DNA of 60,018 bases from Bacilli bacterium (GCA_047973085.1 JBKEBI010000023.1:1-60018), one strand, 5' to 3'. Numbered from the stretch's first letter, positions 180 to 49,617 are shown. Numbers and translations are program-made. Notes: generated by a model from the letters alone, not told the origin.

Positions 180-2093
180 ATGAAAAAATTTTTTAAAATT
201 TTAATGGTGGGGTTATTATTACCTACTATGTTTATGTCTTTTGAAGAGGAAGTTTATGCCGAGGAAGTCTATACAATTAAGTTTGTTGATGCAGGGTGGG
301 ATAGTGTTAAGTTACATTCTACAATTGCTGGAATTATTGCAGAATATGGGTATGGATATGATTGGGAATTAATTCCTGTTTCTTCATCTGTAGGAGTAGA
401 GTCTGTAAAAAATAGTGAGATAGATATAAATATGGAAGCTTGGACTCAAAATATGGCTACATATGCATCTGATATAGAACAGAATAATTATCAAGAATTA
501 TCCACTAATTTCAATGATAACAAGCAAGGTCTATATGTTCCTAGATATGTTATTGAAGGTGATAAGGAGAGGGGAATAGAGGCTCTTGCACCAGATTTAA
601 AAACTGTAGAAGATTTAAAAGATTACGCCGATATTTTTGTTAATCCAAATGATAAAAATAGGGGAGCAATTTATAATGCTCCATCAGGGTGGTTAGTTGC
701 TGATGTGATAGATAATAAGTTTAATTATTATAATTTAGGGGATAATTATGATTTAGTTTCTCCAGGATCAGATTCAGCGCTGTCTGGAATTATTTCTTCA
801 GAGTATAATAATGGAGAAGCTTTTGTTGCGTATTATTGGGAGCCAACATGGGTAACTGGTAAATATGATTTAGTACTACTTGAGGATGCAGTATATACTA
901 CAAATGATGATTACTTACTTGGAAAAACAGAGTTTCCACAAATTGATGTAACAATTACTGCAAGTAATGATTTTGTGAATAATCATGAAGAATATGTAAA
1001 GTTTTTAGAAAATTATGAAACTTCTAGTGAATTAACAGAAAGTGCACTAGCATATATTGAAGAAAATTCTGCTACAATTGATGAAGCAGCTATTTGGTTT
1101 TTGAAAAATAATACTGAACTACTTGATGAATGGTTAGACCCAGAAATTTCAAATAAGGTTAAAGTAGCAATAGGTGAAATGGATGAAGGCAGTAGAGATG
1201 ATAAGTATATATATTATGATAAAGATTCGAGTTTTCCATTTAGGTTTGGAACAAAACTATTTGGTGAAAACTTTTCCAAAATAGATTCTATATTTAATAA
1301 TATAGATAAGATTTTTGGAGGAGTGTTTGATACCATTAAAGGGTTTTTAAATGGATTTATTTCGATTGTTTATAAAGTTTTAGAACTTATTCCATGGTGG
1401 CTATTTATTGGACTAATTTTTCTAGCTAGCTACTTTACTAGTAAGAAATGGCTTACTTCTCTTATTTTTTCAATCCTAGTAATGTTTATTGGCTTTGTAG
1501 GTCTTTGGGATTTAATGAATAAAACTTTGTCAATTGTCATTGTAGCAGTTATAATCTGTGTAGTACTCGGGTTTCCAATTGGGATATTAACAGCTTCTAA
1601 TGATCGTGCAAGTACAATTATTAGACCAATTCTTGATACGATGCAAACAATGCCAATTTTTGTATATTTAATCCCAGCAATTATATTCTTTGGAATTGGT
1701 GAAGCACCTGCAGTAATTGCAACAGTAATTTATGCAATCGTACCTATTATAAGACTTACAGAACATGGTATAAGAACAGTAAGTAAAGAAGTAGTAGAGG
1801 CCTCACGTGCTTTTGGAGCAACGTATTTTCAAACACTATTTAAAGTTAGAATTCCTCAGGCATTACCAACAATAATGACAGGAGTAAATCAAACATTAAT
1901 GATGGCGATGGCAATGGTTGTTACATGTTCAATGATAGGTGCAGCAGGTCTTGGTATGGAGGTATTATATAGTGTAAACCGTATTGAAATAGGTAGGGGG
2001 TTAATATCTGGTACAGCAGTTGTTATTCTGGCAATCGTACTAGATAGAATAACTCAAAAAATCTATGTTGGGAGAAGTGGTAATAATGAGTAA
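180..2093 (+). CDS. Glycine betaine/proline-type ABC transporter, fused substrate-binding domain (N-terminal) and permease (C-terminal)
   Basis: Signal peptide, then an OpuAC-like SBP region (YTIKFVDAGWDSVKLHS...). The C-terminal multi-TM region has an ABC permease EAA-like segment (EASRAFGATYFQTLFKVRIPQALP). RBS AGGAGGG lies upstream. Confidence 0.85.
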   Translation: MKKFFKILMVGLLLPTMFMSFEEEVYAEEVYTIKFVDAGWDSVKLHSTIAGIIAEYGYGYDWELIPVSSSVGVESVKNSEIDINMEAWTQNMATYASDIEQNNYQELSTNFNDNKQGLYVPRYVIEGDKERGIEALAPDLKTVEDLKDYADIFVNPNDKNRGAIYNAPSGWLVADVIDNKFNYYNLGDNYDLVSPGSDSALSGIISSEYNNGEAFVAYYWEPTWVTGKYDLVLLEDAVYTTNDDYLLGKTEFPQIDVTITASNDFVNNHEEYVKFLENYETSSELTESALAYIEENSATIDEAAIWFLKNNTELLDEWLDPEISNKVKVAIGEMDEGSRDDKYIYYDKDSSFPFRFGTKLFGENFSKIDSIFNNIDKIFGGVFDTIKGFLNGFISIVYKVLELIPWWLFIGLIFLASYFTSKKWLTSLIFSILVMFIGFVGLWDLMNKTLSIVIVAVIICVVLGFPIGILTASNDRASTIIRPILDTMQTMPIFVYLIPAIIFFGIGEAPAVIATVIYAIVPIIRLTEHGIRTVSKEVVEASRAFGATYFQTLFKVRIPQALPTIMTGVNQTLMMAMAMVVTCSMIGAAGLGMEVLYSVNRIEIGRGLISGTAVVILAIVLDRITQKIYVGRSGNNE

Positions 2094-3258
2094 GGCTATT
2101 ATGAAAGTTGAAAATATTTCAAAATTATATGGTTTAAAGAAAGAAGATGCACTCATACTTTTAAATAAAGGATTTTCTAAAGAGGAAGTACTTGCTAAAA
2201 CAAAGGTTACTGCAGCACTATATAATGTTTCTTTTGAAGTTAACAAGGGGGAAGTTTTTGTAATAATAGGGCTTTCAGGTTCTGGTAAATCTACTCTTGT
2301 AAGATGTTTAAATCGTCTTATTAAACCAACGAGAGGTACAGTTTATTTTAACGGTAATAATGTTAGTAAATATAATAAAAAAGAACTAAGAAAGTTTAGA
2401 ACTAATCATGTTTCAATGGTTTTCCAACACTTTGGAATTATGGACCATCGTGATGTAGTTGGTAACGTTGAATATGGAATGGAAATAAAAAGAATTAGAA
2501 AAGAATAGCGAAGAAATAAAGCAATGGAAATGATTGATATAGTAGGACTTGGTGGATATGAAACATCTTTTATTAATAATTTATCTGGAGGAATGAAGCA
2601 ACGTGTTGGAATTGCTAGAGCACTTGCAACAGATTCAGATATTCTGCTTATGGATGAACCTTTTTCTGCTCTAGATCCACTTGTTAGAAAAGACATGCAC
2701 CAAGAACTTTTAAGTATACAAAAACAATTCAACAAAACAATTATTTTTATTACTCACGATATAAATGAAGCTTTTAAAATAGGAGATAGAGTTGCTATAA
2801 TGAAAGATGGAAAACTTATTCAAGTAGCTACACCTGAGGAAATGATTGAAAATCCTGCTACTGAATATGTTAGCAAGTTTGTTGAAAGTGCTGATAAATC
2901 AAAGGTATTGCAACTGTATCAAATTATGATACAACCTGATTTTTTAATTAGGGGAACGGAAAATATAAATGAAGTTGCTAGTTATATGAAGGTAAATAAA
3001 GTTAAATATACATTTGTTATTGATGGAGATAAGAGACCTCTTGGTGCAATAACATATGCCAATGTTTTAAAGGCAAAAGAAGAGGGGCTGTTGTTAGCAG
3101 ATATTATTGATAAAGAGATACTTTGTGAAAATGAAGAGCTATATGTAAATGATGTATTTGAACTTGCTGGAACTTCAAAATATCCACTTGTAATAATAAA
3201 GGATGGGAAGTTTAGAGGGATTGTAACATATGAAACAATTCTTGCATCATTAGTTTAA
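2086..3258 (+). pseudogene. opuAA: Glycine betaine ABC transporter ATPase (OpuAA-like, with C-terminal tandem CBS domains) interrupted by an in-frame TAG
   Basis: Walker A GLSGSGKST is in ORF 2065-2508. LSGGMKQRV, Walker B LLMDEPFSALD and the CBS-like tail are in ORF 2524-3258. Both are in the same frame, separated only by TAG at 2506-2508. Probable start is ATG 2086. Confidence 0.8.
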
Positions 3259-18663: not shown

Positions 18664-20463
18664 ATGAGTCAAAATAATATTAGAAATTTTTCAATTATAG
18701 CACATATAGATCATGGAAAAAGTACATTGGCAGATAGAATTTTAGAATTCACTGGTAATGTTACTTCACGTGAATCAAAAGATCAAATTTTAGATTCAAT
18801 GGATATAGAACGTGAACGTGGTATTACAATAAAGTTGAATGCTGTACAGCTTGAATATAAGGCAAAAGATGGGGAAACATATCTGTTTCATTTAATCGAT
18901 ACTCCAGGTCATGTTGATTTTACTTATGAAGTTAGTAGAAGCTTAGCTGCATGTGAGGGATGTTTACTCGTTGTTGATGCTGCACAAGGCATAGAAGCGC
19001 AAACACTTGCAAATGTTTATTTGGCATATGATAATGATTTAGAAATTGTTCCTGTAATTAATAAAATTGATTTACCTGCAGCGGAGCCAGAGCGTGTACG
19101 TGAGGAAATAGAGAATGTTTTAGCTATTGACGCAGAAGATGCAGTTCTTGCTAGTGCTAAAAGTGGAATTGGAATTGAAGACATTTTAGAACAAGTAGTA
19201 AAGAAGATTCCACCTCCACCAGGAGATGCATCTGCTCCGTTGCAAGCATTGATTTTTGATAACTATTTTGATCCATATCGTGGAGTTATTGCTAGCGTAT
19301 GTATTAAGAATGGGCGTGTTAAAAAAGGTGATAAAATTCGTATGATGGCAACTAATGCTGAGTATGAAGTTGTTAGTGTAGGAGTATATACTCCATTTGA
19401 AAAAGAGAAAGAAGAGTTAGTTTGTGGAGAGGTTGGTTTCATTACTGCTAGTATTAAATCAATTGATTCAACAAGAGTAGGGGATACAATTACGCTTGTG
19501 AATAATCCTGCTACTACTCCACTTGAAGGTTACCGCAAAATGAATCCAATGGTGTTTTCGGGTCTTTATCCAATTGATTCTTCACAATATGTTGATTTAC
19601 GTGAAGCTTTGGAAAAACTAAATTTAAATGATGCTGCTCTTGAATTTGAACCAGAAAGTTCTCAAGCATTAGGGTTTGGTTTTAGATGTGGTTTTTTAGG
19701 ACTTTTACATATGGAAATTATCCAAGAACGTATTGAGAGAGAATTTAATATTCCAATCATTACTACTGCTCCATCTGTTGTGTATCATGTTTATACAACT
19801 GATGGCAATATGATTGAAGTTGCAAATCCTTCAATGATGCCAGAAGTTCAAAAAATAGATCATATTGAGGAGCCGACTGTTAATGCTACCATTATTGTTC
19901 CTAATGAATATGTTGGTAGTGTTATGGAACTTTGTCAAAATAAGCGTGGAGAATTTAAAAATCTTTCCTATATTGATAAGATTCGCGTGGAGATTTCCTA
20001 TATTATGCCACTTGGTGAAATCGTATTTGATTTTTTTGATAAATTAAAATCTAGTACTAGAGGATATGCTTCACTTGACTATTCTTTGAGTAAATATAAA
20101 GAATCTAAGTTAAATAAAATGGATATTTTACTTAATGGTGAAAAAGTAGATGCATTAAGTATTATTGTTCATAAAGATTTTGCATATGGAAGAGGAAAAG
20201 CGATTACAGAAAAGTTAAAAGAAATTATTCCAAGACAGCAATTTGAAGTTCCAATTCAAGCTACGCTAGGTAATAAGGTTGTTGCTAGAAGTACAATTAA
20301 AGCACTTAGAAAAAATGTTATTGCTAAATGTTATGGTGGGGATATTTCTCGTAAGAAAAAGCTTCTTCAGAAACAAAAAGAGGGTAAGAAGCGTATGAAG
20401 GCTGTTGGAAGTGTGGAAGTACCGCAAGAAGCATTTTTAGCTGTGCTTAGTGTTGATGAATAG
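18664..20463 (+). CDS. lepA: Elongation factor 4 (LepA)
   Basis: [23 protein letters not shown] and NKIDL G-motifs plus the LepA C-terminal domain. Confidence 0.95.
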
Positions 20464-22333: not shown

Positions 22334-23647
22334 ATGAAAAGAGATTCATATAATAATAGAAAATTTATAAGTAAATTGATAATTGGATTAATAGTAATAT
22401 TGCTATTAATCATTTTTGTTGTGATATATGGGTTACATATTAGAGATAAACAAGAGGAAATTAATGAAGAAATCATCAGCTTAATTGATGAGGGAATAAA
22501 AGATAATAGAATAGAAGAGGTAGTTGAGGATTTACAAAGTAGTTATGAGTTTGAAATAGTAGTATATTTTAATGATGAAAAATTTTCCACGTTTGACAGT
22601 GATTACGAATACCAAAGAAATAATTTAGATAGAGATATAATAAATTATGAAGCATTGAATAAAGCAGAGAACTATGATTATTGGATTGCAATATACAATA
22701 TATCATTTATTCAAAATCTTGATAGTATGCTATATATTATTGTTATACTAAGTTGTTTTGCTGTACAGATTTTAGTTCTTTCTATGTACGTATTTTTTAG
22801 AAAGACAATTAAACCAATTGAAACTTTATATGATGGAGTTGTGAATATAACTAACGATCCATATAGTGCTGATGAAGAAAAACAGAAACAGTTCAATGTT
22901 GAACTTGAAAGTCTTGCAAAAAATATTAAACTAATAGGCTCTAATGTTGCACAAGAATATAATTATCTAGAAAAAGATATAGAGCTATACAAGCAAACAA
23001 TAGCTAGTAAAAATGATCTTGTATATAGTTTAGTTCATGAACTAAAGACACCTTTAAGTATACTAAGTGCATATGCTAGCGAAGTTGAATCATTAGAATT
23101 GAGAAATAAAATGGAACTTAAGATAAATGATGTTGTTATGCAAGTAAAAAATATTATGCAATTGTATAAAAATCAAGAACTGTTTGAGCAGAATACAGAA
23201 TTTGATATTAATTATGAAATAAGAGAAATAGTAAAGAATTTCAATCCAGTCTTATTAGAGAATGGTATATTTATTAATGTTAATTTAAAAGGTGAAACTC
23301 TGATAAATTCTAATTTAATTGAATTTAAGTTAATTATAAATAATGCAATATCAAATATAAATAGTTATGCTAAAAAAGATAGCGAGGTTTTTATTGAACT
23401 AGAAAAGACAGAAAAGTTTATTAAAATAACGTTTGAAAATGAAGTAGATAATATAAAGAATGTTAAGTTTGATAAGGTATTTGATTTAAATTTTTCTAGT
23501 GGTAATAAAAATTTAAAAGATGGATTTGGTATGTATTCAATAAAAAAATTAGCAAAGGCTAATAATGCAGAAGTTAAGTTTTACAACAAGGATGAATTAG
23601 TGTGTTTAGAGATAACATATATAATAGGTAGTAAAAATGAAGCTTAA
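22334..23647 (+). CDS. Sensor histidine kinase (two TM segments, HisKA plus HATPase_c)
   Basis: H-box LVHELKTPLS, N-box NNAISNINSYA, G-box DGFGMYS. Abuts the response-regulator stop. Confidence 0.85.
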   Translation: MKRDSYNNRKFISKLIIGLIVILLLIIFVVIYGLHIRDKQEEINEEIISLIDEGIKDNRIEEVVEDLQSSYEFEIVVYFNDEKFSTFDSDYEYQRNNLDRDIINYEALNKAENYDYWIAIYNISFIQNLDSMLYIIVILSCFAVQILVLSMYVFFRKTIKPIETLYDGVVNITNDPYSADEEKQKQFNVELESLAKNIKLIGSNVAQEYNYLEKDIELYKQTIASKNDLVYSLVHELKTPLSILSAYASEVESLELRNKMELKINDVVMQVKNIMQLYKNQELFEQNTEFDINYEIREIVKNFNPVLLENGIFINVNLKGETLINSNLIEFKLIINNAISNINSYAKKDSEVFIELEKTEKFIKITFENEVDNIKNVKFDKVFDLNFSSGNKNLKDGFGMYSIKKLAKANNAEVKFYNKDELVCLEITYIIGSKNEA

Positions 23648-24236
23648 GCTAATACTGATTTCATTATTATTATTATTTAATTTTTCAAATAATATAATTA
23701 ACTCTGAAGAAATAGCGAATGATTTTGTATATGGTACAATTATTGATGGAGAAAAGGATTTACCTATATATAATTTTAAGATAGACCTTTTAGATGTTAA
23801 TGGTAATGTGATTGCAGAAGGAGAAACTAATAGAAAAGGAGAATATCTATTGATTGGAGCTTCAAAAAATGAGGTTGTTCAACTACGTTTAACAATAGAT
23901 AATAAAGTAAGTTTTCAAGAGGTTTTATATGAGCTAAAACGTGGTAGAAAAGTTAATATTACAATCTTTAGTGAAAAAGTAGTAATTTTAGATGAAGATG
24001 AAGAAGAAACTACTATACTTATGGAAGAAAAACAAGATAGTTTTAATAAAGATAGCTATTTTTTAGAAAACAATAATAGTAGCTTTTCAGGAGTTTTTGT
24101 TTCAATTATATTTTCTGTAATAATAATTCTATTATTAGTTACTTTTTTGATATTTGTATATACTTTTATATATTATGGAAAAATTAATACAAGGATAAAA
24201 TATATTTTGAATTTTATAAAGAAAAATAAAGAATAA
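23637..24236 (+). CDS. Secreted, C-terminally membrane-anchored protein with a carboxypeptidase-regulatory-like beta-sandwich domain
   Basis: Signal peptide, then YGTIIDGEKDLPIYNFKIDLLDVNGNVIAEGETNRKGEY, an acidic linker and a C-terminal TM segment. Overlaps the kinase 3' end. Confidence 0.6.
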   Translation: MKLKLILISLLLLFNFSNNIINSEEIANDFVYGTIIDGEKDLPIYNFKIDLLDVNGNVIAEGETNRKGEYLLIGASKNEVVQLRLTIDNKVSFQEVLYELKRGRKVNITIFSEKVVILDEDEEETTILMEEKQDSFNKDSYFLENNNSSFSGVFVSIIFSVIIILLLVTFLIFVYTFIYYGKINTRIKYILNFIKKNKE

Positions 24237-27466: not shown

Positions 27467-28342
27467 ATGAAAAATTTTTGGTTACTAGTTCTAGTTAGTG
27501 CAATTTGGGGATCTTCGTTTATTTTTATGAGAGTATTGTCTCCTATATATGGAGGATATTTTGTAGCATTTTCTCGTATGTTCATTGGAGGGATTTTTAC
27601 TCTTATATATGCAAAAATAGTTGGAGTAAAGTTTGATTTTAAAAATAATTTTAAACATTACCTTTTTATAGCATTTTTTAATGGAGCCTTACCACTTACA
27701 TGCTTTTCACTTGCAGCTGTTTATATAGATGCTTCACTGTCAGCAATTTTGAATAGTACATCATCAATTTTAGCTAGTATTTATGGAATATATTTTTTAA
27801 AAGAAAAGTTGAGTATAAAGCAAATTTTTGGGTTGATGTTAGCATTTTTTAGTTTACTGTATATTACAATTTTAAAAGATGCAAGCCAAGATGTTAAAGT
27901 TATTGGAATTATATTAGCGCTCATTGCAACGAATGGTTATGCAATAAGTAGTATTTATATTTCATTAAAAGCAAAAAATGTTGATTCAAGAGCATTTGCC
28001 TCAGTGTCTACTTTTATGGGAAGTATGTTACTTTTACCTCTTGCATTTTCAACAGTACAAATAATTGACTCAAATTATGTTTTCCATTTTTTATTTTTAG
28101 GAATTATGTGCACTGGTGTTGCTTATCTAATATATTTTTATTTAATTAAAAAGATAGGCGTTAAAGCACTATCTACAACATTTTTACAGCCAATATTTGG
28201 AAGCATATGGGCAGTACTTTTCCTAGGTGAAATATTTACGCTAAGAATGGCAGCTACAACACTATTAATTGTACTGGGAGTATATGTTTTCTTAAGTGAT
28301 AAAATAAAAGGGGAAAGAGATTATGGCAAGATTAAAAATTAG
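27467..28342 (+). CDS. EamA/DMT-family transporter
   Basis: About ten TM segments with duplicated EamA-type organisation. Confidence 0.8.
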   Translation: MKNFWLLVLVSAIWGSSFIFMRVLSPIYGGYFVAFSRMFIGGIFTLIYAKIVGVKFDFKNNFKHYLFIAFFNGALPLTCFSLAAVYIDASLSAILNSTSSILASIYGIYFLKEKLSIKQIFGLMLAFFSLLYITILKDASQDVKVIGIILALIATNGYAISSIYISLKAKNVDSRAFASVSTFMGSMLLLPLAFSTVQIIDSNYVFHFLFLGIMCTGVAYLIYFYLIKKIGVKALSTTFLQPIFGSIWAVLFLGEIFTLRMAATTLLIVLGVYVFLSDKIKGERDYGKIKN

Positions 28343-28859
28343 ACAAAATTGTGAATTAGATAAAGGAACAGTAAAAGTGCTAGAAAACTATGAAAGATCA
28401 AGTGGAATTAATCATACTGTTTATAGAGTTATTGCTGCAAAACCAGAATTACTAAAATCTTTTATGAACTATACTGCTTCTATAAGAACTAATTCTACAC
28501 TAGATGCTGGACTAGAAGAACTTTTAATGTATTTTGTTTCAAATATAAATAGGTGTGATTACTGAGCTACAGCTCGTATCGTTTCGGGGAAGCGTAAAGG
28601 CATTTTAATCGAAAAGTTTGAGAATATTTATGACTATAAAGATAGAAGTGATTTGTTTAGTAAAAAAGAACAAGCAGTATTAAATTTTGTTTCAAAAGCT
28701 ACTTTAAATTCTCTATCTGTAATTGATGAGGATGTAAAACAGTTAAAAATTTATTTTAGTGAAGCACAAGTGATTGAAATTTTGTTTTTTGTAAGCTATA
28801 TGTTAACTACAAATACAATTATTAATACTCTAGATATAGAATTGCCAGAAGGATTGTAA
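28323..28859 (+). CDS. Carboxymuconolactone decarboxylase/AhpD-family protein with an in-frame TGA at 28563-28565 (candidate selenoprotein, otherwise a pseudogene)
   Basis: ORFs 28323-28565 and 28653-28859 share one frame with no other stop between them. Read-through gives ...FVSNINRCDY[TGA]ATARIV..., which places the TGA at the second Cys of the family CxxC motif. Confidence 0.6.
28572..28601 (+). promoter_or_regulatory. Candidate bacterial SECIS-like hairpin
   Basis: Starts 7 nt after the TGA. Upper stem CGUUUC/GAAGCG with a GGG apical loop about 21-23 nt from the UGA, and a bulged U below it. Lower pairs UA/UA and GCU/GGC. Confidence 0.4.
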
Positions 28860-28861
28860 AG

Positions 28862-28888
28862 CATTGAAGTATAAACTTCAATGTTTTT
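28862..28888 (+). terminator. Rho-independent terminator after the AhpD-family gene
   Basis: Stem cattgaagt/acttcaatg, 4-nt loop, TTTTT. Confidence 0.75.
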
Positions 28889-28894
28889 AAAATT

Positions 28895-33493: not shown

Positions 33494-33988
33494 GTGTGTG
33501 GTAAGGATTGTAAAGCTGAAGTATCAATAGATTATAGTGAACTTGATATGTTTATTTCTAATCTTGAAGAAAAAGATCAGTCTTCATTAATTAAGACATT
33601 ACATTATGCTCAAAGTGTTTATGGATATTTATCAGTGGAAACTCAAACTCGTATTGCAAAAGCTTTAAATGTAGCTACATCACATGTATATGGTGTTGTT
33701 TCATTTTATAGCTACTTTACAGATAAGCCAAGAGGAGAGCACATTATAAAAGTGTGTATAGGAACAGCTTGTTATGTAAAAGGATCAGGAGACATTTTAA
33801 AAGTAATTAGCGAAATGATTGGTGTTAAACCAGGAGAAACATCAGATGATTTACAATTTAGTTTAGAAGGTACAAGATGTATCGGTGCTTGTGGTCTTGC
33901 TCCAGTATTTACTATTGGTGAAGAAGTCTATGGTAATACTAATGTTGAGGAAACAAGAGAAATAATTAACGGATATCTAAATAAATAA
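33494..33988 (+). CDS. NuoE-like [2Fe-2S] subunit of NAD(P)-linked [FeFe]-hydrogenase (HydC/HndA)
   Basis: NuoE/thioredoxin-like [2Fe-2S] Cys pattern (VCIGTAC...CIGACGLAP). GTG start after AGGGAGG. Confidence 0.85.
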   Translation: MCGKDCKAEVSIDYSELDMFISNLEEKDQSSLIKTLHYAQSVYGYLSVETQTRIAKALNVATSHVYGVVSFYSYFTDKPRGEHIIKVCIGTACYVKGSGDILKVISEMIGVKPGETSDDLQFSLEGTRCIGACGLAPVFTIGEEVYGNTNVEETREIINGYLNK

Positions 33989-33998
33989 GGAGGCTACA

Positions 33999-34361
33999 AT
34001 GAAAAGTATTGAGGAATTAAAAAAAATTCGTGAATCTGCTAAGCGAAATATTGATATGAGAAGCTCTAAAAACGGTTATCGTATTTTAGTTGGAATGGCA
34101 ACATGTGGTATTGCCTCAGGAGCTAAGCCAGTAATGGCAAAGTTTGTTGAAGAAGTGGCTAGAAAAAATCTTGAAAATGTTGTTGTTACTCAGGTAGGAT
34201 GTATTGGGAAATGTGCATATGAGCCGATTGTCGAAATAGTTGACTCTGAGGGTAGAAAGACAATCTATGCAAATGTTACTGAAGAGAAAGTTGTAGAAAT
34301 AGTTAATAGTCATATTGAAAACAATACGGTTGTTGATGAATACAAACTTTCAAATAACTAA
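33999..34361 (+). CDS. Thioredoxin-like [2Fe-2S] ferredoxin subunit (HndB-like)
   Basis: 120 aa with MATCGIASGA...VGCIGKCAYEP. Confidence 0.75.
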   Translation: MKSIEELKKIRESAKRNIDMRSSKNGYRILVGMATCGIASGAKPVMAKFVEEVARKNLENVVVTQVGCIGKCAYEPIVEIVDSEGRKTIYANVTEEKVVEIVNSHIENNTVVDEYKLSNN

Positions 34362-34373
34362 GAAAGGGGAACC

Positions 34374-36164
34374 ATGATGTTAGAGAGAACTCAAGTATTA
34401 ATATGTGGTGGGACTGGCTGTTTAAGTTCTAAAGCATTAGAAATAAAAAATGAATTTGAGAAAAATCTAAAAGAATTAGGAATAAAAGATGAAGTTGGTG
34501 TAGTACTTACTGGTTGTTTTGGACTATGTGAGAAAGGACCAATTGTAATTGTTTATCCAGACGAAACATTTTATTCTAAAGTAAAAGTAGACGATGTTGC
34601 TAGAATTTGTGAAGAACATTTATATAAAGGTAGAATTGTAAAAGATCTAGTGTTTGAAGAAGTTTTAGAAGATGATATTGTAAAGGCATTTAATGATATT
34701 GGATTTTATCGTACTCAAAAACGTATTGCCCTTAGAAATTGTGGGGTAATTAATCCATTTGAAATAGAGGAATATATTGCTAATGATGGTTATTTTGCAC
34801 TTGCAAGTATTTTAGAAGAAAATACTCCTGAAGATGTAATTGATATTATGAAAAAATCTGGTCTTAGGGGACGTGGAGGCGGAGGATTCCCAACAGGAAT
34901 GAAGTGGGAATTTGCTGCAAAGGAAGAGTCTGAGCAAAAATATGTTTTGTGTAATGCAGATGAGGGAGATCCTGGAGCATTTATGGATCGTGCTATTCTA
35001 GAAGGTGATCCTCATAGTGTAATAGAAGCGATGGCGATTTGTGGATATGCAATCGGGGCTAGTCAAGGTTATTTTTATATTCGTGCGGAGTATCCAATTG
35101 CGGTAGAGCGTGTTGAGCATGCTCTAAAACAAGCATATGAGTATGGGTTGCTAGGTAAAAATATTTTTGACAGTGGTTTTTCGTTTGATTTGGAAGTAAG
35201 ACTTGGTGCTGGCGCATTTGTATGTGGTGAAGAAACAGCTCTAATTGCTTCAATTGAAGGTGAACGTGGGATGCCAAGAAACAAGCCACCATTTCCAGCT
35301 GTAAAAGGACTTTTCCAAGAACCAACTATTATTAACAATGTTGAAACTTTAGCTAATATACCTATAATTATTAATAAAGGTGCAGATTGGTACAGTTCAA
35401 TTGGTACAGAAGAGTCACCAGGAACAAAGGTATTTGCTTTAGGTGGAAAAATTGCGAATACTGGATTAGTAGAAGTCCCAATGGGAACAAAACTTCGTGA
35501 TATTATATATAATATTGGTGGAGGAATTCCAGAAGGGAAGGAATTTAAAGCAGTACAAACAGGTGGACCTAGTGGAGGGGTAATTCCAAAGGAACATTTA
35601 GATGTAGCTATTGAATATCAAACTCTTAAAGATATTGGAACAATGATGGGTTCAGGAGGAATGATCGTCCTTGATGAAACTGATTGTATTGTAGATATTG
35701 CGAAATTTTATTTGGAATTTACTTGTGAAGAATCGTGCGGTAAATGTACACCGTGTCGTGTAGGAACAACTCGTTTATTAGAAATTTTAGAAAAAATTAC
35801 TGAAGGTAATGGTACGGAAGAAGACCTTGTTACTTTAAAAAATCTTTCTGAAACAATTGTTGATACATCATTATGTGGACTTGGTAAAAGTGCACCTAAT
35901 CCAATTTTATCAACGCTAAATTATTTTTATGATGAGTATTTAGCGCATGTAAGAGATAAAAAATGTCCTGCGGGAGTTTGTCAAAATTTACTAGAAATTT
36001 TTATTACTGATAGTTGTATTGGTTGTACAAAATGTAGTAGAGTTTGTCCAGTTGACTGTATAGATGGAAAAGTTAAAGAGTTGCATGTAATTGATCAAGA
36101 TACGTGTATTAAATGTAGCGCTTGTATTGATGCATGTCCTGTAGATGCAATAATTAAAAGGTAG
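34374..36164 (+). CDS. NuoF-like flavoprotein subunit (HydB/HndC) with NAD(P)H/FMN site and C-terminal 4Fe-4S ferredoxin domains
   Basis: GRGGGGFPTG and CGKCTPCR motifs. Two CxxCxxCxxxCP motifs at the C-terminus. Confidence 0.9.
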   Translation: MMLERTQVLICGGTGCLSSKALEIKNEFEKNLKELGIKDEVGVVLTGCFGLCEKGPIVIVYPDETFYSKVKVDDVARICEEHLYKGRIVKDLVFEEVLEDDIVKAFNDIGFYRTQKRIALRNCGVINPFEIEEYIANDGYFALASILEENTPEDVIDIMKKSGLRGRGGGGFPTGMKWEFAAKEESEQKYVLCNADEGDPGAFMDRAILEGDPHSVIEAMAICGYAIGASQGYFYIRAEYPIAVERVEHALKQAYEYGLLGKNIFDSGFSFDLEVRLGAGAFVCGEETALIASIEGERGMPRNKPPFPAVKGLFQEPTIINNVETLANIPIIINKGADWYSSIGTEESPGTKVFALGGKIANTGLVEVPMGTKLRDIIYNIGGGIPEGKEFKAVQTGGPSGGVIPKEHLDVAIEYQTLKDIGTMMGSGGMIVLDETDCIVDIAKFYLEFTCEESCGKCTPCRVGTTRLLEILEKITEGNGTEEDLVTLKNLSETIVDTSLCGLGKSAPNPILSTLNYFYDEYLAHVRDKKCPAGVCQNLLEIFITDSCIGCTKCSRVCPVDCIDGKVKELHVIDQDTCIKCSACIDACPVDAIIKR

Positions 36165-36171
36165 GTGCAAA

Positions 36172-37905
36172 ATGAAAATATTTATTAACGGAATAGAATT
36201 TGAGGCTACAAAAGGTGAAACAATTTTAGACGTAGCAAAAAGAAATGGCTTTCACATTCCTACTTTATGTCATTTAAAGCTTGAGGATATGTGTTATGAA
36301 AATAAACCTGTTTCTTGTAGAGTTTGTATGGTTGATGCAGGAACTAATGAAAATATGAACTTGGTACCAGCATGTGGAACAGAAGTATATGAAGGAATGG
36401 CTGTTGATACAGATACAGCAAAGGCAATTAATGCAAGAAGAACTAATGTAGAACTTTTACTTTCAAATCATCCAAATGATTGTTTATTTTGTGATCGTTC
36501 TACAAATTGTGATTTACAGAAGATGGCTTATGACTTAAATGTGAGAAATGTTAGATATAAAGGAAAAAAATCAGATTATGGAATTGATGCAAGCTCACCG
36601 TCAATCGTTAAAAATCTTGACAAGTGTGTACTTTGTAGAAGGTGTGAAAGTATTTGTCGTGAAGTACAGGCAGTTAGTGTTTATTCGGATATTAATCGTG
36701 GGTTTGAAACGGTTATTGCTCCAGCATTTAACAAACCATTACATGAAACAAATTGTACATTTTGTGGACAATGTGTGAGTGTTTGTCCAACAGCTGCGCT
36801 TACTGAGGTAAATAATGTTGGCAAAGTTTGGGATGTTATCAATGATTCAGATAAAATTGTAGTAGTACAAACAGCACCAGCAGTTCGTGTGGCGATTGCT
36901 GAAGAGTTTGGAGCAGAACCAGGAACAATTACAACTGGAAAAATGGTTGCTGCACAGAGAAGACTTGGCTTTGACTATGTTTTTGATACAAACTGGGGTG
37001 CAGATTTAACAATTGTTGAAGAAGCAAATGAAGTAATGCAAAGGCTTCAAGGGAAAGGTAGACTTCCGATTTTGACTTCTTGTTGTCCTGCTTGGGTAAA
37101 GTTTATTGAGCACCAGTTTCCTTCTTTAATTGATGTTCCTTCGTCATGTAAATCACCTCATGAAATGTTTGGAGCAATTACAAAGACATATTTTGCTGAA
37201 AAACTAGGGGTTAATCCAAAAGATCTTATTGTAGTTTCAGTTATGCCATGTGTTGCAAAAAAATATGAGGCAGCAAGATCAGAACTTGAAGCAGACGGGA
37301 ATCAAGATGTAGATTTAGTTATTACTTCTCGTGAATTTGCACGAATGGTTAAAGAGTCAGGAATTTCGTATATGGATTTACCTGATGAAGAATTTGATAA
37401 TCCTCTTGGAGAATCAACTGGAGCTGCGCAAATATTTGGTACGACAGGTGGAGTGCTAGAAGCAGCGCTTAGAACAGTTTCAAGTTGGTTAGGTGATGAT
37501 AGTGAAAAATCATTGAACTTTGAAAGTGTTCGTGGTTTAGATGGAATCAAAGAAGCATCTATTATGGCAGGAGATCGTGAAGTAAAAGTTGCGGCTGCTC
37601 ATGGGCTAGGAAATGCTAAGAAGCTTTTAAAAGATATTGAAAGTGGAAATAATAAATATGATGTTATAGAGATTATGGCATGCCCAGGTGGTTGTATTGC
37701 TGGTGGTGGTCAACCTTATCACCATGGTAATAGAGAAATTATAAAAAAACGTATGAACTCAATGTATGAAATTGATAATAAAAAACAAGTTAGAAGAAGT
37801 CATGAAAATGAAGACATTAAAAGAGTTTATGAAGAGTTTTTAGGTGAAATTGGCGGAGAGAAAGCTCACAAACTACTTCATACACATTATGTAAAAAGAG
37901 ATTAA
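36172..37905 (+). CDS. hydA: [FeFe]-hydrogenase catalytic subunit (HydA/HndD)
   Basis: H-cluster signatures TSCCPAW, MPCVAKKYE and EIMACPGGCIAGGGQP. N-terminal 2Fe-2S and 4Fe-4S domains. Confidence 0.95.
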   Translation: MKIFINGIEFEATKGETILDVAKRNGFHIPTLCHLKLEDMCYENKPVSCRVCMVDAGTNENMNLVPACGTEVYEGMAVDTDTAKAINARRTNVELLLSNHPNDCLFCDRSTNCDLQKMAYDLNVRNVRYKGKKSDYGIDASSPSIVKNLDKCVLCRRCESICREVQAVSVYSDINRGFETVIAPAFNKPLHETNCTFCGQCVSVCPTAALTEVNNVGKVWDVINDSDKIVVVQTAPAVRVAIAEEFGAEPGTITTGKMVAAQRRLGFDYVFDTNWGADLTIVEEANEVMQRLQGKGRLPILTSCCPAWVKFIEHQFPSLIDVPSSCKSPHEMFGAITKTYFAEKLGVNPKDLIVVSVMPCVAKKYEAARSELEADGNQDVDLVITSREFARMVKESGISYMDLPDEEFDNPLGESTGAAQIFGTTGGVLEAALRTVSSWLGDDSEKSLNFESVRGLDGIKEASIMAGDREVKVAAAHGLGNAKKLLKDIESGNNKYDVIEIMACPGGCIAGGGQPYHHGNREIIKKRMNSMYEIDNKKQVRRSHENEDIKRVYEEFLGEIGGEKAHKLLHTHYVKRD

Positions 37906-45993: not shown

Positions 45994-47091
45994 ATGATAA
46001 TGAAAAATTTAACAAAAGAATTAAAAAATGAAAAAGTTAAAAATTTACTTAAAAAATTAAGGAATCAAAATGAACTTACTAGAGAAGAATATTTATATAT
46101 TTTAGAAAATATTGATGTAAGTGCTTTTGAATACTTAAAACAGCTTTCTAGAAAGGTAACTGATGAAGTTTATGGAAAAGCTGTGTATTTACGTGGTCTA
46201 ATAGAAATATCTAATTATTGTAATAGAAGTTGTAATTACTGTGGAATCAGAAAAGAAAATACCGATGTAAATAGATATAGACTTAGTAAGGAAGAAATTT
46301 TAAATAGCTGTGAAATAGGTTATAAACTAGGCTATAAAACATTTGTAATGCAAGGTGGAGAAGATAGTTATTATACCAAAGAGGTATTAAGTGATATAAT
46401 TAGTGAAATTAGAAAGAAGTTTCCAGATGTAGCTATCACTTTATCAATTGGTGAGAGAAGTTATGAAGATTATCTTTCGTTTTTTAATGCTGGAGCGAAC
46501 AGATTTTTACTTCGTCATGAAGCATATTCAAAAAATCTGTATAATCATTTACATCCTTCTTCAATGAGTTATGAAGATAGAATTGAATGTTTAAATAATT
46601 TAAAAGAAATAGGATATCAGACTGGACTTGGGATGATGATAGGGAGTCCAACTCAAACTAATAAAGATTTAGTGGAAGATTTAATATTTATTCAGGAATT
46701 TAAGCCTGCAATGTGTGGTATAGGTCCATATATTAATCACAAAAATACACCTTTTAAAAATGAGGAAACAGGTAATGTTGATCATACATTAGTAATGGTA
46801 GCTCTTGCACGATTAATCGTTCCAAGTTGTTTGATTCCAGCAACTACAGCACTTGCAACAATTGATAAAAATAAGAGGCTTGATGCTCTAAAGCTAGGTG
46901 CGAATGTAGTTATGCCAAACCTTAGTCCTCACTCAGCAAGGAAGTCATATGAAATCTATCAAGGTAAGAAGTTTCTAGGTTGTGAAGCAGCAGAAGAAAA
47001 GGATGCAATCATAAAAGAAATTGAAGATATTGGTCTTGAAGTAGTTCTTGTTAGAGGAGATACAAAAATGGAGGGATATGAATGTTTATAG
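45994..47091 (+). CDS. hydE: [FeFe]-hydrogenase maturase HydE (radical SAM)
   Basis: CNRSCNYCG radical-SAM motif, BioB-like fold, placed directly upstream of hydG-hydF. Confidence 0.85.
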   Translation: MIMKNLTKELKNEKVKNLLKKLRNQNELTREEYLYILENIDVSAFEYLKQLSRKVTDEVYGKAVYLRGLIEISNYCNRSCNYCGIRKENTDVNRYRLSKEEILNSCEIGYKLGYKTFVMQGGEDSYYTKEVLSDIISEIRKKFPDVAITLSIGERSYEDYLSFFNAGANRFLLRHEAYSKNLYNHLHPSSMSYEDRIECLNNLKEIGYQTGLGMMIGSPTQTNKDLVEDLIFIQEFKPAMCGIGPYINHKNTPFKNEETGNVDHTLVMVALARLIVPSCLIPATTALATIDKNKRLDALKLGANVVMPNLSPHSARKSYEIYQGKKFLGCEAAEEKDAIIKEIEDIGLEVVLVRGDTKMEGYECL

Positions 47092-48440
47092 ATAATCAAT
47101 ATATAAAAGAAATATTAAAAGTTAACCCCACATATGAGGATGTATTGAGTGTTATACATAGGAGTAGGGAAGGTGAAAGTTTATCACACAAAGATATTGC
47201 AGTACTTTTAAATGCTGAAGATGAAAAAAGTATAGCTCTTGTTTTTGATGAAGCTTCAAGAATAAAAAGTAAATATTATGGAAATCGAGTAGTACTTTTT
47301 GCACCTCTTTATGTAAGTGATTACTGCACAAATAACTGTACTTACTGTGGATATAAACGTAGTAACGATTTTACTCGTAGAAAACTTAGCTATGATGAAA
47401 TTAAAGAAGAAGTAAAATTTTTAGAGGAATTAGGACACAAGCGCCTTGCTCTTGAAGTTGGTGAAGATGAGGTTAATTTTGATTTTGAAACAATTTTATC
47501 TTCAATAGATGCTATTTATGAAAATAGTAGTATTAGAAGAATTAATGTAAACATTGCTCCAGTAAGTGTAGAGAAATTTTCAAGACTTAAAGCTAAAAAT
47601 ATCGGTACATATATTTTGTTTCAAGAAACGTATGATAAAAAGATGTATGAAAAGTATCATTCTAAAAGCTTAAAGGGAGACTTTGATAGACAACTGTATG
47701 CTCATCACAATGCAATGAAGGGTGGAATTGATGATGTAGGTGGAGGAGTTTTATTTGGGCTTAGCGATTATAAATTTGAAGTTTTATGTTTGATGCTTCA
47801 CAATGAAGAATTAGAAAAAGAATTTAATGTAGGATTTCATACAGTTAGTGTACCTAGAATTAGAAAAGCTATTGGTATGGAAATAAATGAATTTAATCAT
47901 TTGGTTAGTGATGAGGAGTTTAAGAAACTTGTTGCAATTATTAGAATTGCAATACCATTTACCGGAATAATCTTATCAACCCGTGAGTCAGAAGTAATGC
48001 GTCAAGAATTGATTGATTTAGGAATAACACAAATTAGTGCAGGAAGTCAAACTGGCGTTGGTGGGTATAAAGACAGTCAGTCAGGTAAGGCAAGTTTGCA
48101 ATTTGCTACAAACGATGAGCGAAGCCCAATAGAGGTAATTAAGGATTTAATAAGAAGAGGGTACCTTCCTTCATATTGTACTGCTTGTTACCGAGTGGGA
48201 AGAGTTGGGCAAGATTTTATGGATATTGTAAAAGCTAATAAAATTCATTTGCTATGTCATCCTAATTCACTGATTACTTTTACTGAATATATTGAAGATT
48301 ATGGAGATGAAGAACTCAAAACTTTGGGTTATAAGTTGATTGAAAATGAACTTGCTAAAATAGAGAATATAGAATTTAGAAAAAAGGTTAGTGAGAAGGT
48401 TGATTTAATTAGAAAGGGAGAGCGTGATTTGTATGTCTAA
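47082..48440 (+). CDS. hydG: [FeFe]-hydrogenase maturase HydG (radical SAM tyrosine lyase)
   Basis: CTNNCTYCG motif plus C-terminal CTACYR cluster motif. Confidence 0.9.
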   Translation: MFIDNQYIKEILKVNPTYEDVLSVIHRSREGESLSHKDIAVLLNAEDEKSIALVFDEASRIKSKYYGNRVVLFAPLYVSDYCTNNCTYCGYKRSNDFTRRKLSYDEIKEEVKFLEELGHKRLALEVGEDEVNFDFETILSSIDAIYENSSIRRINVNIAPVSVEKFSRLKAKNIGTYILFQETYDKKMYEKYHSKSLKGDFDRQLYAHHNAMKGGIDDVGGGVLFGLSDYKFEVLCLMLHNEELEKEFNVGFHTVSVPRIRKAIGMEINEFNHLVSDEEFKKLVAIIRIAIPFTGIILSTRESEVMRQELIDLGITQISAGSQTGVGGYKDSQSGKASLQFATNDERSPIEVIKDLIRRGYLPSYCTACYRVGRVGQDFMDIVKANKIHLLCHPNSLITFTEYIEDYGDEELKTLGYKLIENELAKIENIEFRKKVSEKVDLIRKGERDLYV

Positions 48441-49617
48441 TACTCCTGTTGCAAACATTTGTCATATTACTATTTTTGGGGATAGAAATTCTGGTAAAAG
48501 TAGCTTGTTTAATGCTATAATTAATCAAGATATTGCAATAATTGATGAAACTCTTGGTACCACTACTGATCCTATTCATAAGCGAATAGAATTACTTCCT
48601 TTTGGTCCGGTTCTTTTAACTGATACTGCTGGAATGGATGATGAAGGAGATTTAGGTAAAAAGCGGATTGAAAAATCAAAAAAAATGTATGCAAGAACAA
48701 ATTTTGGAATAGTATTATTTGATGCAACAAAAAATAATTTTGATCATAGTTGTGAAAGCGAGTTAGCAAAATTTGATATTAGTTATGTGAAAGTTTTTAA
48801 TAAGATAGATTTAATTTCAAATGAGAAATTAGAACAACTAAAAAAAGATTTTCCCAATGCTTTGTTTGTTGCAACAAATGATTTTAAAAGTGTTTTAGAT
48901 TTTAAAGAGAGTTTAATGCATAAACTTAGCATACAAGAAAATAGATCTATTATAGGCAAATATTTAAATCCCAAAGATAATGTAGTATTAGTTATACCAA
49001 TAGATAGTGAAGCACCTAAGGGAAGACTTATTCTCCCTCAGGTTCAAGTAATACGTGATTTACTGGATTACAATATTAATGCAATTATAACTAATGAAAA
49101 TAATTTAGTAGAAACTTTAAAAAATATAGATAATGTTATGATGGTAATAACAGATTCTCAGGTTTTTCATAAAATAAAAGATATTGTACCAGATTCAATA
49201 TATTTAACATCTTTTTCTATTTTGTTTGCTCACTATAAATCCAATTTAAATAATTTCAGTTTAACTCTTCCAACAAAAGTAAGTAATGTATTAATATGCG
49301 AAAGTTGTACACATAATGTTGGTCATGAAGATATAGGTATGGTGAAAATTCCGAGACTTTTGAAAAAAAGGTATGGAGATATTGAAATCAAACATGTAAT
49401 GGGAAATGATTTTGTTAGTAGTTTGGATAATTTTGATTTAATTATTCATTGTGGTAGTTGTATGTTAAATGATAGTGTTATGAAGTATCGTATTAATTTA
49501 GCCAAAGAATCAAATGTGTTATTTACTAACTATGGGCTGTATTTAGCTTATGAAAGTGATATTTTAGATCGTAGTATCCAATTTTTTAAAGATAAAAATA
49601 TTATAAAAGTTAATTAA
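48424..49617 (+). CDS. hydF: [FeFe]-hydrogenase maturase GTPase HydF
   Basis: GDRNSGKSSL P-loop, DTAG, NKID, and C-terminal CxH...HCGSC cluster motif. ATG 48433 is an alternative start. Confidence 0.9.
   Translation: MICMSNTPVANICHITIFGDRNSGKSSLFNAIINQDIAIIDETLGTTTDPIHKRIELLPFGPVLLTDTAGMDDEGDLGKKRIEKSKKMYARTNFGIVLFDATKNNFDHSCESELAKFDISYVKVFNKIDLISNEKLEQLKKDFPNALFVATNDFKSVLDFKESLMHKLSIQENRSIIGKYLNPKDNVVLVIPIDSEAPKGRLILPQVQVIRDLLDYNINAIITNENNLVETLKNIDNVMMVITDSQVFHKIKDIVPDSIYLTSFSILFAHYKSNLNNFSLTLPTKVSNVLICESCTHNVGHEDIGMVKIPRLLKKRYGDIEIKHVMGNDFVSSLDNFDLIIHCGSCMLNDSVMKYRINLAKESNVLFTNYGLYLAYESDILDRSIQFFKDKNIIKVN

Follow-up and report, generated by a model that had tools for sequence, protein, structure and literature searches.

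We analysed a 60,018-nt stretch of DNA from a Bacilli bacterium (GCA_047973085.1, contig JBKEBI010000023.1; hereafter the window), which has 29% G+C and is densely coding under table 11. The analysis centred on an AhpD-like gene at 28323–28859 of the plus strand, the frame of which carries a TGA codon at a candidate site of selenocysteine (Sec) insertion. The two open reading frames (ORFs) found here, 28323–28565 (80 residues) and 28653–28859 (68 residues), lie in one shared frame. Translation of the entire interval gave a single internal stop, TGA at 28563–28565, in the context ...MYFVSNINRCDY (stop) ATARIVSGKRKG..., in agreement with a preceding sequence-only reading, which had described the TGA as the sole stop between the two ORFs. 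The following features were located:

28307–28319 (+): Shine-Dalgarno-like purine-rich stretch, AAAGGGGAAAGAG, read from the sequence and ending 3 nt before the ATG
28323–28859 (+): full-length AhpD-like gene (COG2128/YciW-type), 178 codons including UGA-81, then TAA
28554–28565 (+): redox motif C78-D-Y-U81 (TGT GAT TAC TGA), in which U81 is the TGA at 28563–28565
28579–28595 (+): minihelix of the Sec insertion sequence (SECIS) type, 17 nt, with 5' arm UCGUUU (28579–28584), loop CGGGG (28585–28589) and 3' arm AAGCGU (28590–28595)
28858–28892 (+): terminator-like hairpin directly past the final TAA, with a 13-bp stem, a 4-nt loop and a U-run

The purine-rich stretch may act as the ribosome-binding signal. 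The terminator-like hairpin (dG −13.6 kcal/mol, z −4.8, with 0 of 200 shuffles equally stable) is placed after the second ORF and not after the TGA, and was counted in favour of a full-length gene.

The TGA stands on the second cysteine of a CxxC motif

Family searches were run on the read-through protein with Cys placed at TGA codon 81. The protein passed the Pfam CMD model (24.9 bits, gathering score 23), matched NCBIfam TIGR01926 "peroxidase-related enzyme" end to end (residues 3–172 of 178, E 1.3e-16) and matched NF053654 "YciW-related (seleno)protein" (E 1.6e-14), consistent with the AhpD/CMD family proposed earlier. Among solved structures, PDB 6k40 ("Alkyl hydroperoxide reductase AhpD", E 8e-7) aligned over residues 13–170 with its CxxC in register, pairing NRCVYCAVSH with NRCDY[U]ATAR. 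PDB 2oyo and 2prr, both "uncharacterized peroxidase-related protein", are further Cys-type AhpD-like relatives. The solved AhpD-like proteins have Cys at both motif positions followed by a His, whereas the window protein has a predicted Sec and an Arg.

An exhaustive HMMER search with the homologue P0002 as query returned 334 relatives, and we aligned the window protein and 127 single-domain relatives with MAFFT. The first-Cys column (78) holds Cys in 107 of the 128 sequences, and in the TGA column (81) Cys is found 95 times, Glu 17 times and Trp 5 times. The TGA thus occupies the place of the second CxxC Cys, where the sequence-only reading had put it and where the alignment to PDB 6k40 also places it. 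The Glu upstream of the motif, which the window protein (E66) has in common with canonical AhpD, is present in 94 of 128 sequences. The fourth residue past the second motif position is Arg85 in the window protein and its orthologues, His in 91 of 128 and Arg in 8 of 128. The nearest Cys homologue found shares just 33–35% identity with the window protein.

In public protein sets the Sec codon is called Trp, or the protein is given as pieces of about 80 and about 85 residues, in many entries, among them P0001, P0002, P0011, P0080 and P0158–P0171; the AhpD-like selenoprotein family is systematically mis-annotated across public protein collections. P0004, a Logan contig protein of 182 residues that is 39% identical to P0002, has Trp at the Sec column and Thr for the first Cys (KTPYW), and may represent a putative TxxU variant of the motif.

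The TGA is conserved in orthologues under purifying selection

TGA stands at the same codon in loci L001, L002, L003, L004, L005, L086 and L088 and in 79 metagenome loci. L001, L002 and L003, which belong to two highly fragmented NCBI assemblies, read NECEY-TGA-G(M/K)ARVASGK and encode proteins 54–62% identical to the window protein. L004, together with L005, belongs to a metagenome-assembled genome (MAG) labelled "Bacilli bacterium" (GCA_047975285.1), and its AhpD-like protein, 68% identical to that of the window, appears in the annotation as a pair of hypothetical proteins, ACK5NF_00605 and ACK5NF_00610. The two regions are syntenic, with nadD-HD, comEA, comEC, holA, lepA, hemW, the 5-FTHF cyclo-ligase gene and DUF212 preceding the split gene, and LepA is 91% identical between them, compared with the 68% of the AhpD-like protein.

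All orthologues are of equal length and free of further stops or frameshifts. Downstream of the TGA, the proportion of synonymous differences among them (pS) is 0.68–0.75, which is saturated, and that of nonsynonymous differences (pN) is 0.22–0.25, giving a pN/pS of about 0.33. Amino acid identity downstream of the TGA (61–67%) is no lower than upstream (54–68%). The other two frames downstream contain 7–17 stops, and only the gene frame is open in all orthologues. The decay that further disruptions in close relatives would have betrayed is thus not seen; instead the same TGA is kept, with strong purifying selection on both sides of it. A search of genome contigs and metagenome contigs with an alignment of four orthologues returned no relatives, and the clade is therefore rare in those collections.

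A hairpin follows the UGA at a fixed register

With the U of UGA numbered as position 1, nt 17–22 of the window mRNA pair with nt 28–33 around a 5-nt loop; a 13-nt spacer separates the UGA from the stem, and the loop Gs stand 21–24 nt past the UGA. The sequence-only reading had drawn a hairpin CGUUUC/GAAGCG with a GGG loop 21–23 nt after the UGA, and this element is indeed present and is the minimum free energy fold of a 48-nt segment. The orthologous and more distant loci form the same helix (loops in brackets):

Window: UCGUUU[CGGGG]AAGCGU
L004: UUGUUU[CGGGU]AAACAA
L001, L002 and L003: UUGCUU[CGGGA]AAGCAA
Anaerosolibacter sp. L086: UCGCUU[GGGUG]AAGCGA
L088: CCGCUU[GGGUC]AAGCGA

Compensatory changes occur at pair 18–32, where C-G becomes U-A, and at pair 20–30, found as U.G, C-G and U-A. 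RNAalifold on 7 sequences predicted exactly the 17–22/28–33 helix, with 94% of the cells paired, versus 44–58% when the partner was slid by 1–3 columns. In L086 and L088 the hairpin keeps the identical register despite different encoded residues (AWVK versus VSGK). All orthologues use the Ser codon TCG within the hairpin, a codon that accounts for 3.5% of the Ser codons in the window.

The most telling comparison was a scan of metagenomes with the marine/sediment AhpD-like subfamily, which showed TGA at the motif column in 79 of 80 loci; in all 79 TGA loci, nt 17–33 read CUGCUU[CGGCG]AAGCAG or differ from it by one base. This hairpin is nearly invariant while neighbouring synonymous positions vary, and it has the register, the GCUU/AAGC core and the CGGNG loop in common with that of the window. 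A covariance model built only from the other subfamilies, run over 93.7 kb on both strands, returned 28579–28595 as its top match, full length and in register. Among the genes of the window, five inner pairs with a GG loop occur in the exact register at 0.15% of codon positions, and in any register from 16 to 37 nt at 3.8%. Four distinct Cys forms of the gene were compared, and in three of them the stem is degraded (3, 4 and 4 of 6 pairs). The hairpin of the 79 metagenomic TGA genes is evidently the SECIS element of the AhpD-like family; that of the window, earlier described as SECIS-like, corresponds in position and sequence core to it and to the hairpin of the Anaerosolibacter homologue.

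Two further structural proposals did not survive the comparison. The bulged U and extra lower pairs, which the sequence-only reading had called reminiscent of bacterial SECIS elements, occur in the window only and are not conserved in the orthologues. A GAGC/GCUC hairpin over the UGA itself (28563–28576), flagged by a terminator scan and followed by a T-rich stretch, is likewise absent from all orthologues; it is probably fortuitous, although an influence on how ribosomes pause at this UGA is conceivable in the window strain.

A Cys form (TGC) on JGI metagenome contigs (L170–L173, P0180) has a fully paired UUGCUU[CGGCG]AAGCAA and is close in sequence to the Sec forms L168 and L169. P0180 probably reflects a recent Sec-to-Cys change in which the hairpin has yet to decay.

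The gene very probably encodes a selenoprotein

The interval 28323–28859 is read in one frame, its TGA lies on the CxxC column, both TGA and hairpin are conserved, and TGA is not a general sense codon in the window. We conclude that the interval is very probably a single Sec-encoding gene in which the UGA at 28563–28565 is recoded to Sec, an interpretation first put forward in the sequence-only reading and supported overall by the orthologue, genetic code and hairpin comparisons. We infer that Sec, and not another residue, is inserted at UGA-81.

The product would be a 178-residue thiol/selenol oxidoreductase of the AhpD/CMD fold with the active site Cys78-x-x-Sec81. In the proposed mechanism, the mRNA would fold a 17-nt hairpin from 13 nt past the UGA, with a stem of 5–6 bp and the loop CGGGG, and this hairpin, if it acts like other bacterial SECIS elements, would bring SelB-GTP-Sec-tRNA(Sec) to ribosomes pausing on that codon. 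The protein most likely would reduce a peroxide or disulfide, with Sec81 as the attacking or resolving residue that would form a selenenylsulfide with Cys78.

Several observations weigh against this interpretation. The 60-kb contig carries none of selA, selB, selD and tRNA-Sec, the last looked for with ARAGORN and Rfam. At the protein level, the curated cutoff of TIGR01926 was not reached (60.9 versus 81.8 bits), and we therefore treat the window protein as a putative divergent sister branch and not as a TIGR01926 member in NCBI's sense; Arg85 stands where 91 of 128 homologues have the post-CxxC His. Regarding the hairpin, the stem is short, AU-rich and thermodynamically weak, and single-sequence folding did not set it apart from shuffles, with z-scores between −0.55 (the window) and about 0 (L004) in all but L002 (−2.1). 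The observed covariation score was reached by 12 of 500 shuffles, with only 6 distinct sequences contributing, and the covariance-model match scored only 13.4 bits (E about 0.1). One of the Cys forms, in what is a small control (n = 4), keeps an intact hairpin, so that nucleotide conservation could partly follow from conserved residues. Rfam returned no match to the hairpin at either gathering or E-value thresholds, a null that carries little weight, as this short element type appears not to be modelled there. Support for the structure is comparative, not thermodynamic. Finally, an in-frame TAG in opuAA on the same contig indicates that decay-type stops occur in this genome.

Alternative readings of the in-frame TGA

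Of the competing explanations, the one that survives best, though we regard it as quite improbable, is that the UGA is decoded as a residue other than Sec, whether by a reassigned code (4 or 25), by a dedicated tRNA that suppresses the stop or inserts Cys, or by near-cognate read-through, to give CxxW, CxxG or CxxC. Class Bacilli in GTDB includes the code-4 Mollicutes, the window LepA is 69–71% identical to those of Izemoplasmatales and Xianfuyuplasma, Sec machinery genes are missing from the 60-kb contig, and the public calls P0001, P0002, P0004, P0011 and P0080 have Trp at the TGA column. Codon usage in the window contradicts such decoding. The 44 long genes contain 0 in-frame TGA in 16,408 codons, compared with 86 TGG, and they end in TAA (25), TAG (15) or TGA (4). 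The products of three TGA-ended genes agree closely in length between the window and the related MAG (360/360, 652/649 and 334/332 residues), and a six-frame scan for read-through candidates found only the TGA at 28563–28565 on a coding strand. Codes 4 and 25 are thereby excluded, and the earlier statement that TGA is otherwise an ordinary stop here, leaving code 4 without explanatory value, stands. The Trp calls come from short contigs; those of P0001, P0002 and P0011, checked in the DNA, are TGA, a stop under table 11, and are artefacts of code-4 gene calls. Moreover, the motif would be lost with Trp or Gly in place of the redox Cys, and general suppression gives no role to a hairpin conserved at the SECIS position.

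We give very little credence to a true split gene, in which an 80-residue N-terminal peptide and a re-initiated C-terminal part would assemble. Gene annotation shows two ORFs in the window, as it does in the related MAG (ACK5NF_00605 and ACK5NF_00610), and downstream start codons are present (TTG at 28653 in the window; ATG in L004 and in L001–L003). These potential restart codons, however, lie 29, 13 and 2 codons past the TGA in different orthologues, leaving no conserved restart site. The conserved residues right after the TGA (A-R-x-x-S-G-K...K-F..I.D-Y-K) would stay untranslated in the window, and loss of the second redox residue would make no functional sense.

The least credible alternative, to which we attach next to no weight, is a decaying pseudogene, its second Cys codon (TGT or TGC) turned into TGA by mutation and its downstream ORF left over: one base separates TGY from TGA, and the contig also holds the opuAA gene with its in-frame TAG (2506–2508) as well as insertion sequence (IS) and RHS elements, but the same TGA recurs in at least 4 orthologues 54–68% identical to the window protein at saturated synonymous divergence, other stops and frameshifts are lacking, the downstream half is conserved like the upstream half (pN/pS about 0.33), the other downstream frames hold 7–17 stops, and the orthologues, which differ from the window protein at 32–46% of amino acids, cannot be recent copies of one dead allele. 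Since the downstream half is conserved like the upstream half in spite of the saturation at synonymous sites, the AhpD-like gene is, on the comparative evidence, not a pseudogene.

Comparison with known AhpD-like selenoproteins

Read as a Sec-encoding gene, the window gene adds a new and mis-annotated member to a selenoprotein family that had already been described, and is not a new type of system. AhpD-like COG2128/YciW selenoproteins with CxxU were first described in 2005 from the Sargasso Sea metagenome, with 27 sequences (PMC1088965), and Alkaliphilus metalliredigenes was later added as a source (PMC1794560). With 299 AhpD-like 1 genes, they belong to the most abundant selenoprotein families in the Global Ocean Sampling data (PMC2398784), and current reviews give TIGR01926 as their domain (PMC13188914, PMC9312934). 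The sequence-only reading, which had counted AhpD-like proteins among the families with Sec-containing members, is borne out by their listing as a CxxU family (PMC1088965, PMC2398784, PMC13188914). The criteria of the field are a Cys/TGA pair in which most homologues have Cys, at least two sequences that conserve the TGA, and a bacterial SECIS-like stem-loop whose small apical loop contains a G (PMC1088965); the window gene shows all three, the stem-loop with modest statistics.

The window gene has in common with the known members the superfamily branch, the position of the predicted Sec on the second Cys of CxxC and the hairpin register of nt 17–33. It differs from the known family in the Arg that replaces the post-motif His, in a weaker, AU-rich stem and in its low-GC (29%), uncultured Bacilli host, and its protein is 22–30% identical to the marine and sediment members. 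The Firmicute homologues of the Anaerosolibacter sp./P0011 type (L086 and L088) are likewise CxxU proteins with a following Arg, of about 170 residues and with an identical hairpin register. They are only about 22–25% identical to the window protein, their hairpin encodes IAWVKR where that of the window encodes IVSGKR, and they lie next to spore germination genes, unlike the window gene.

The SECIS of Escherichia coli fdhF is a short stem-loop within the coding sequence, about 11 nt after the UGA (13 nt in the window), with an upper part of about 17 nt, and the G residues of its apical loop are needed for SelB binding. In contrast to the fdhF minihelix, the window hairpin has no conserved bulged U, and its loop is CGGGN and not of the GGUC type; its SECIS role is a predicted one, and SelB would be involved by analogy.

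These results correct the annotation of a gene that is split into two hypothetical proteins in the window contig and in the MAG and translated with Trp elsewhere, and they add to the AhpD-like selenoprotein family a divergent Firmicute branch in which CxxU is followed by Arg. The 17-nt minihelix spans, at a fixed register, subfamilies that are 22–25% identical in protein and is therefore usable as a search signature. Knowledge of Sec decoding itself is unchanged. From the finding we would expect this uncultured, anaerobic Bacilli lineage to make use of selenium and to have selABCD.

Host lineage and other features of the contig

The contig has the gene order yqeG-yqeH-nadD/yqeK-comEA-comEC-holA...lepA-hemW. 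It encodes a HydABC-type [FeFe] hydrogenase (33494–37905), consisting of two 2Fe-2S thioredoxin-like subunits, a Nuo51-like subunit and the HydA large subunit, and, 8 kb downstream, the maturases HydE, HydG and HydF (45994–49617). Thiolase and peptide and iron transporters are also present. The gene content points to an anaerobic Firmicute as the source of the contig, and the hydrogenase and its maturases would indicate a strictly anaerobic, fermentative lifestyle.

LepA is 70–75% identical to those of various Bacillales, near the 69–71% quoted above for Izemoplasmatales and Xianfuyuplasma; overall, its matches range from 61 to 75%, are spread over Bacilli and other phyla and reach at most 75% with any genome representative retrieved. 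By this measure the lineage would be a poorly represented, uncultured low-GC branch of class Bacilli, which LepA does not place below the class. A further-reaching reading sees in the AhpD-like gene of this lineage an apparent obligate-Sec subfamily, given the distance to the nearest Cys homologue and the Arg in place of the catalytic His. A 2006 survey reported wall-less, Mollicutes-type Bacilli to be without SelD (PMC1794560). If the lineage did group with these organisms, Sec decoding would be extended into that group; alternatively, the UGA might be decoded here with non-canonical machinery. On present evidence we consider this further-reaching reading, in either form, unlikely.

Immediately upstream of the AhpD-like gene lies an EamA transporter gene (27467–28342), the 3' end of which overlaps the start of the AhpD-like gene by 20 nt. 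In the window it separates DUF212 from the AhpD-like gene; the syntenic MAG (L004, 9532–10001) lacks it at this position. Two ORFs of 437 and 199 residues at 22334–24236 (+), right after an OmpR-type response regulator, had no counterpart in Pfam at E 1e-5, in a place where one would expect a sensor kinase.

The opuAA gene (2065–3258, +) encodes the ATPase of a glycine-betaine/proline ABC transporter (ABC_tran and CBS domains) and is interrupted by the in-frame TAG at 2506–2508 (...IKRIRKE (stop) RRNKAMEM...). Its two halves share one frame and there is no pyrrolysine context; the stop is probably a nonsense mutation in a pseudogene or a sequencing error. The holA–lepA interval (12560–18664) contains an RHS-repeat protein gene (13040–15916) and two ORFs of an IS3-type transposase (16886–17344 and 17395–18192), while the related MAG (L004/L005) has only rpsT between holA and lepA. 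The interval looks like mobile or toxin-type DNA inserted into an otherwise conserved gene order.

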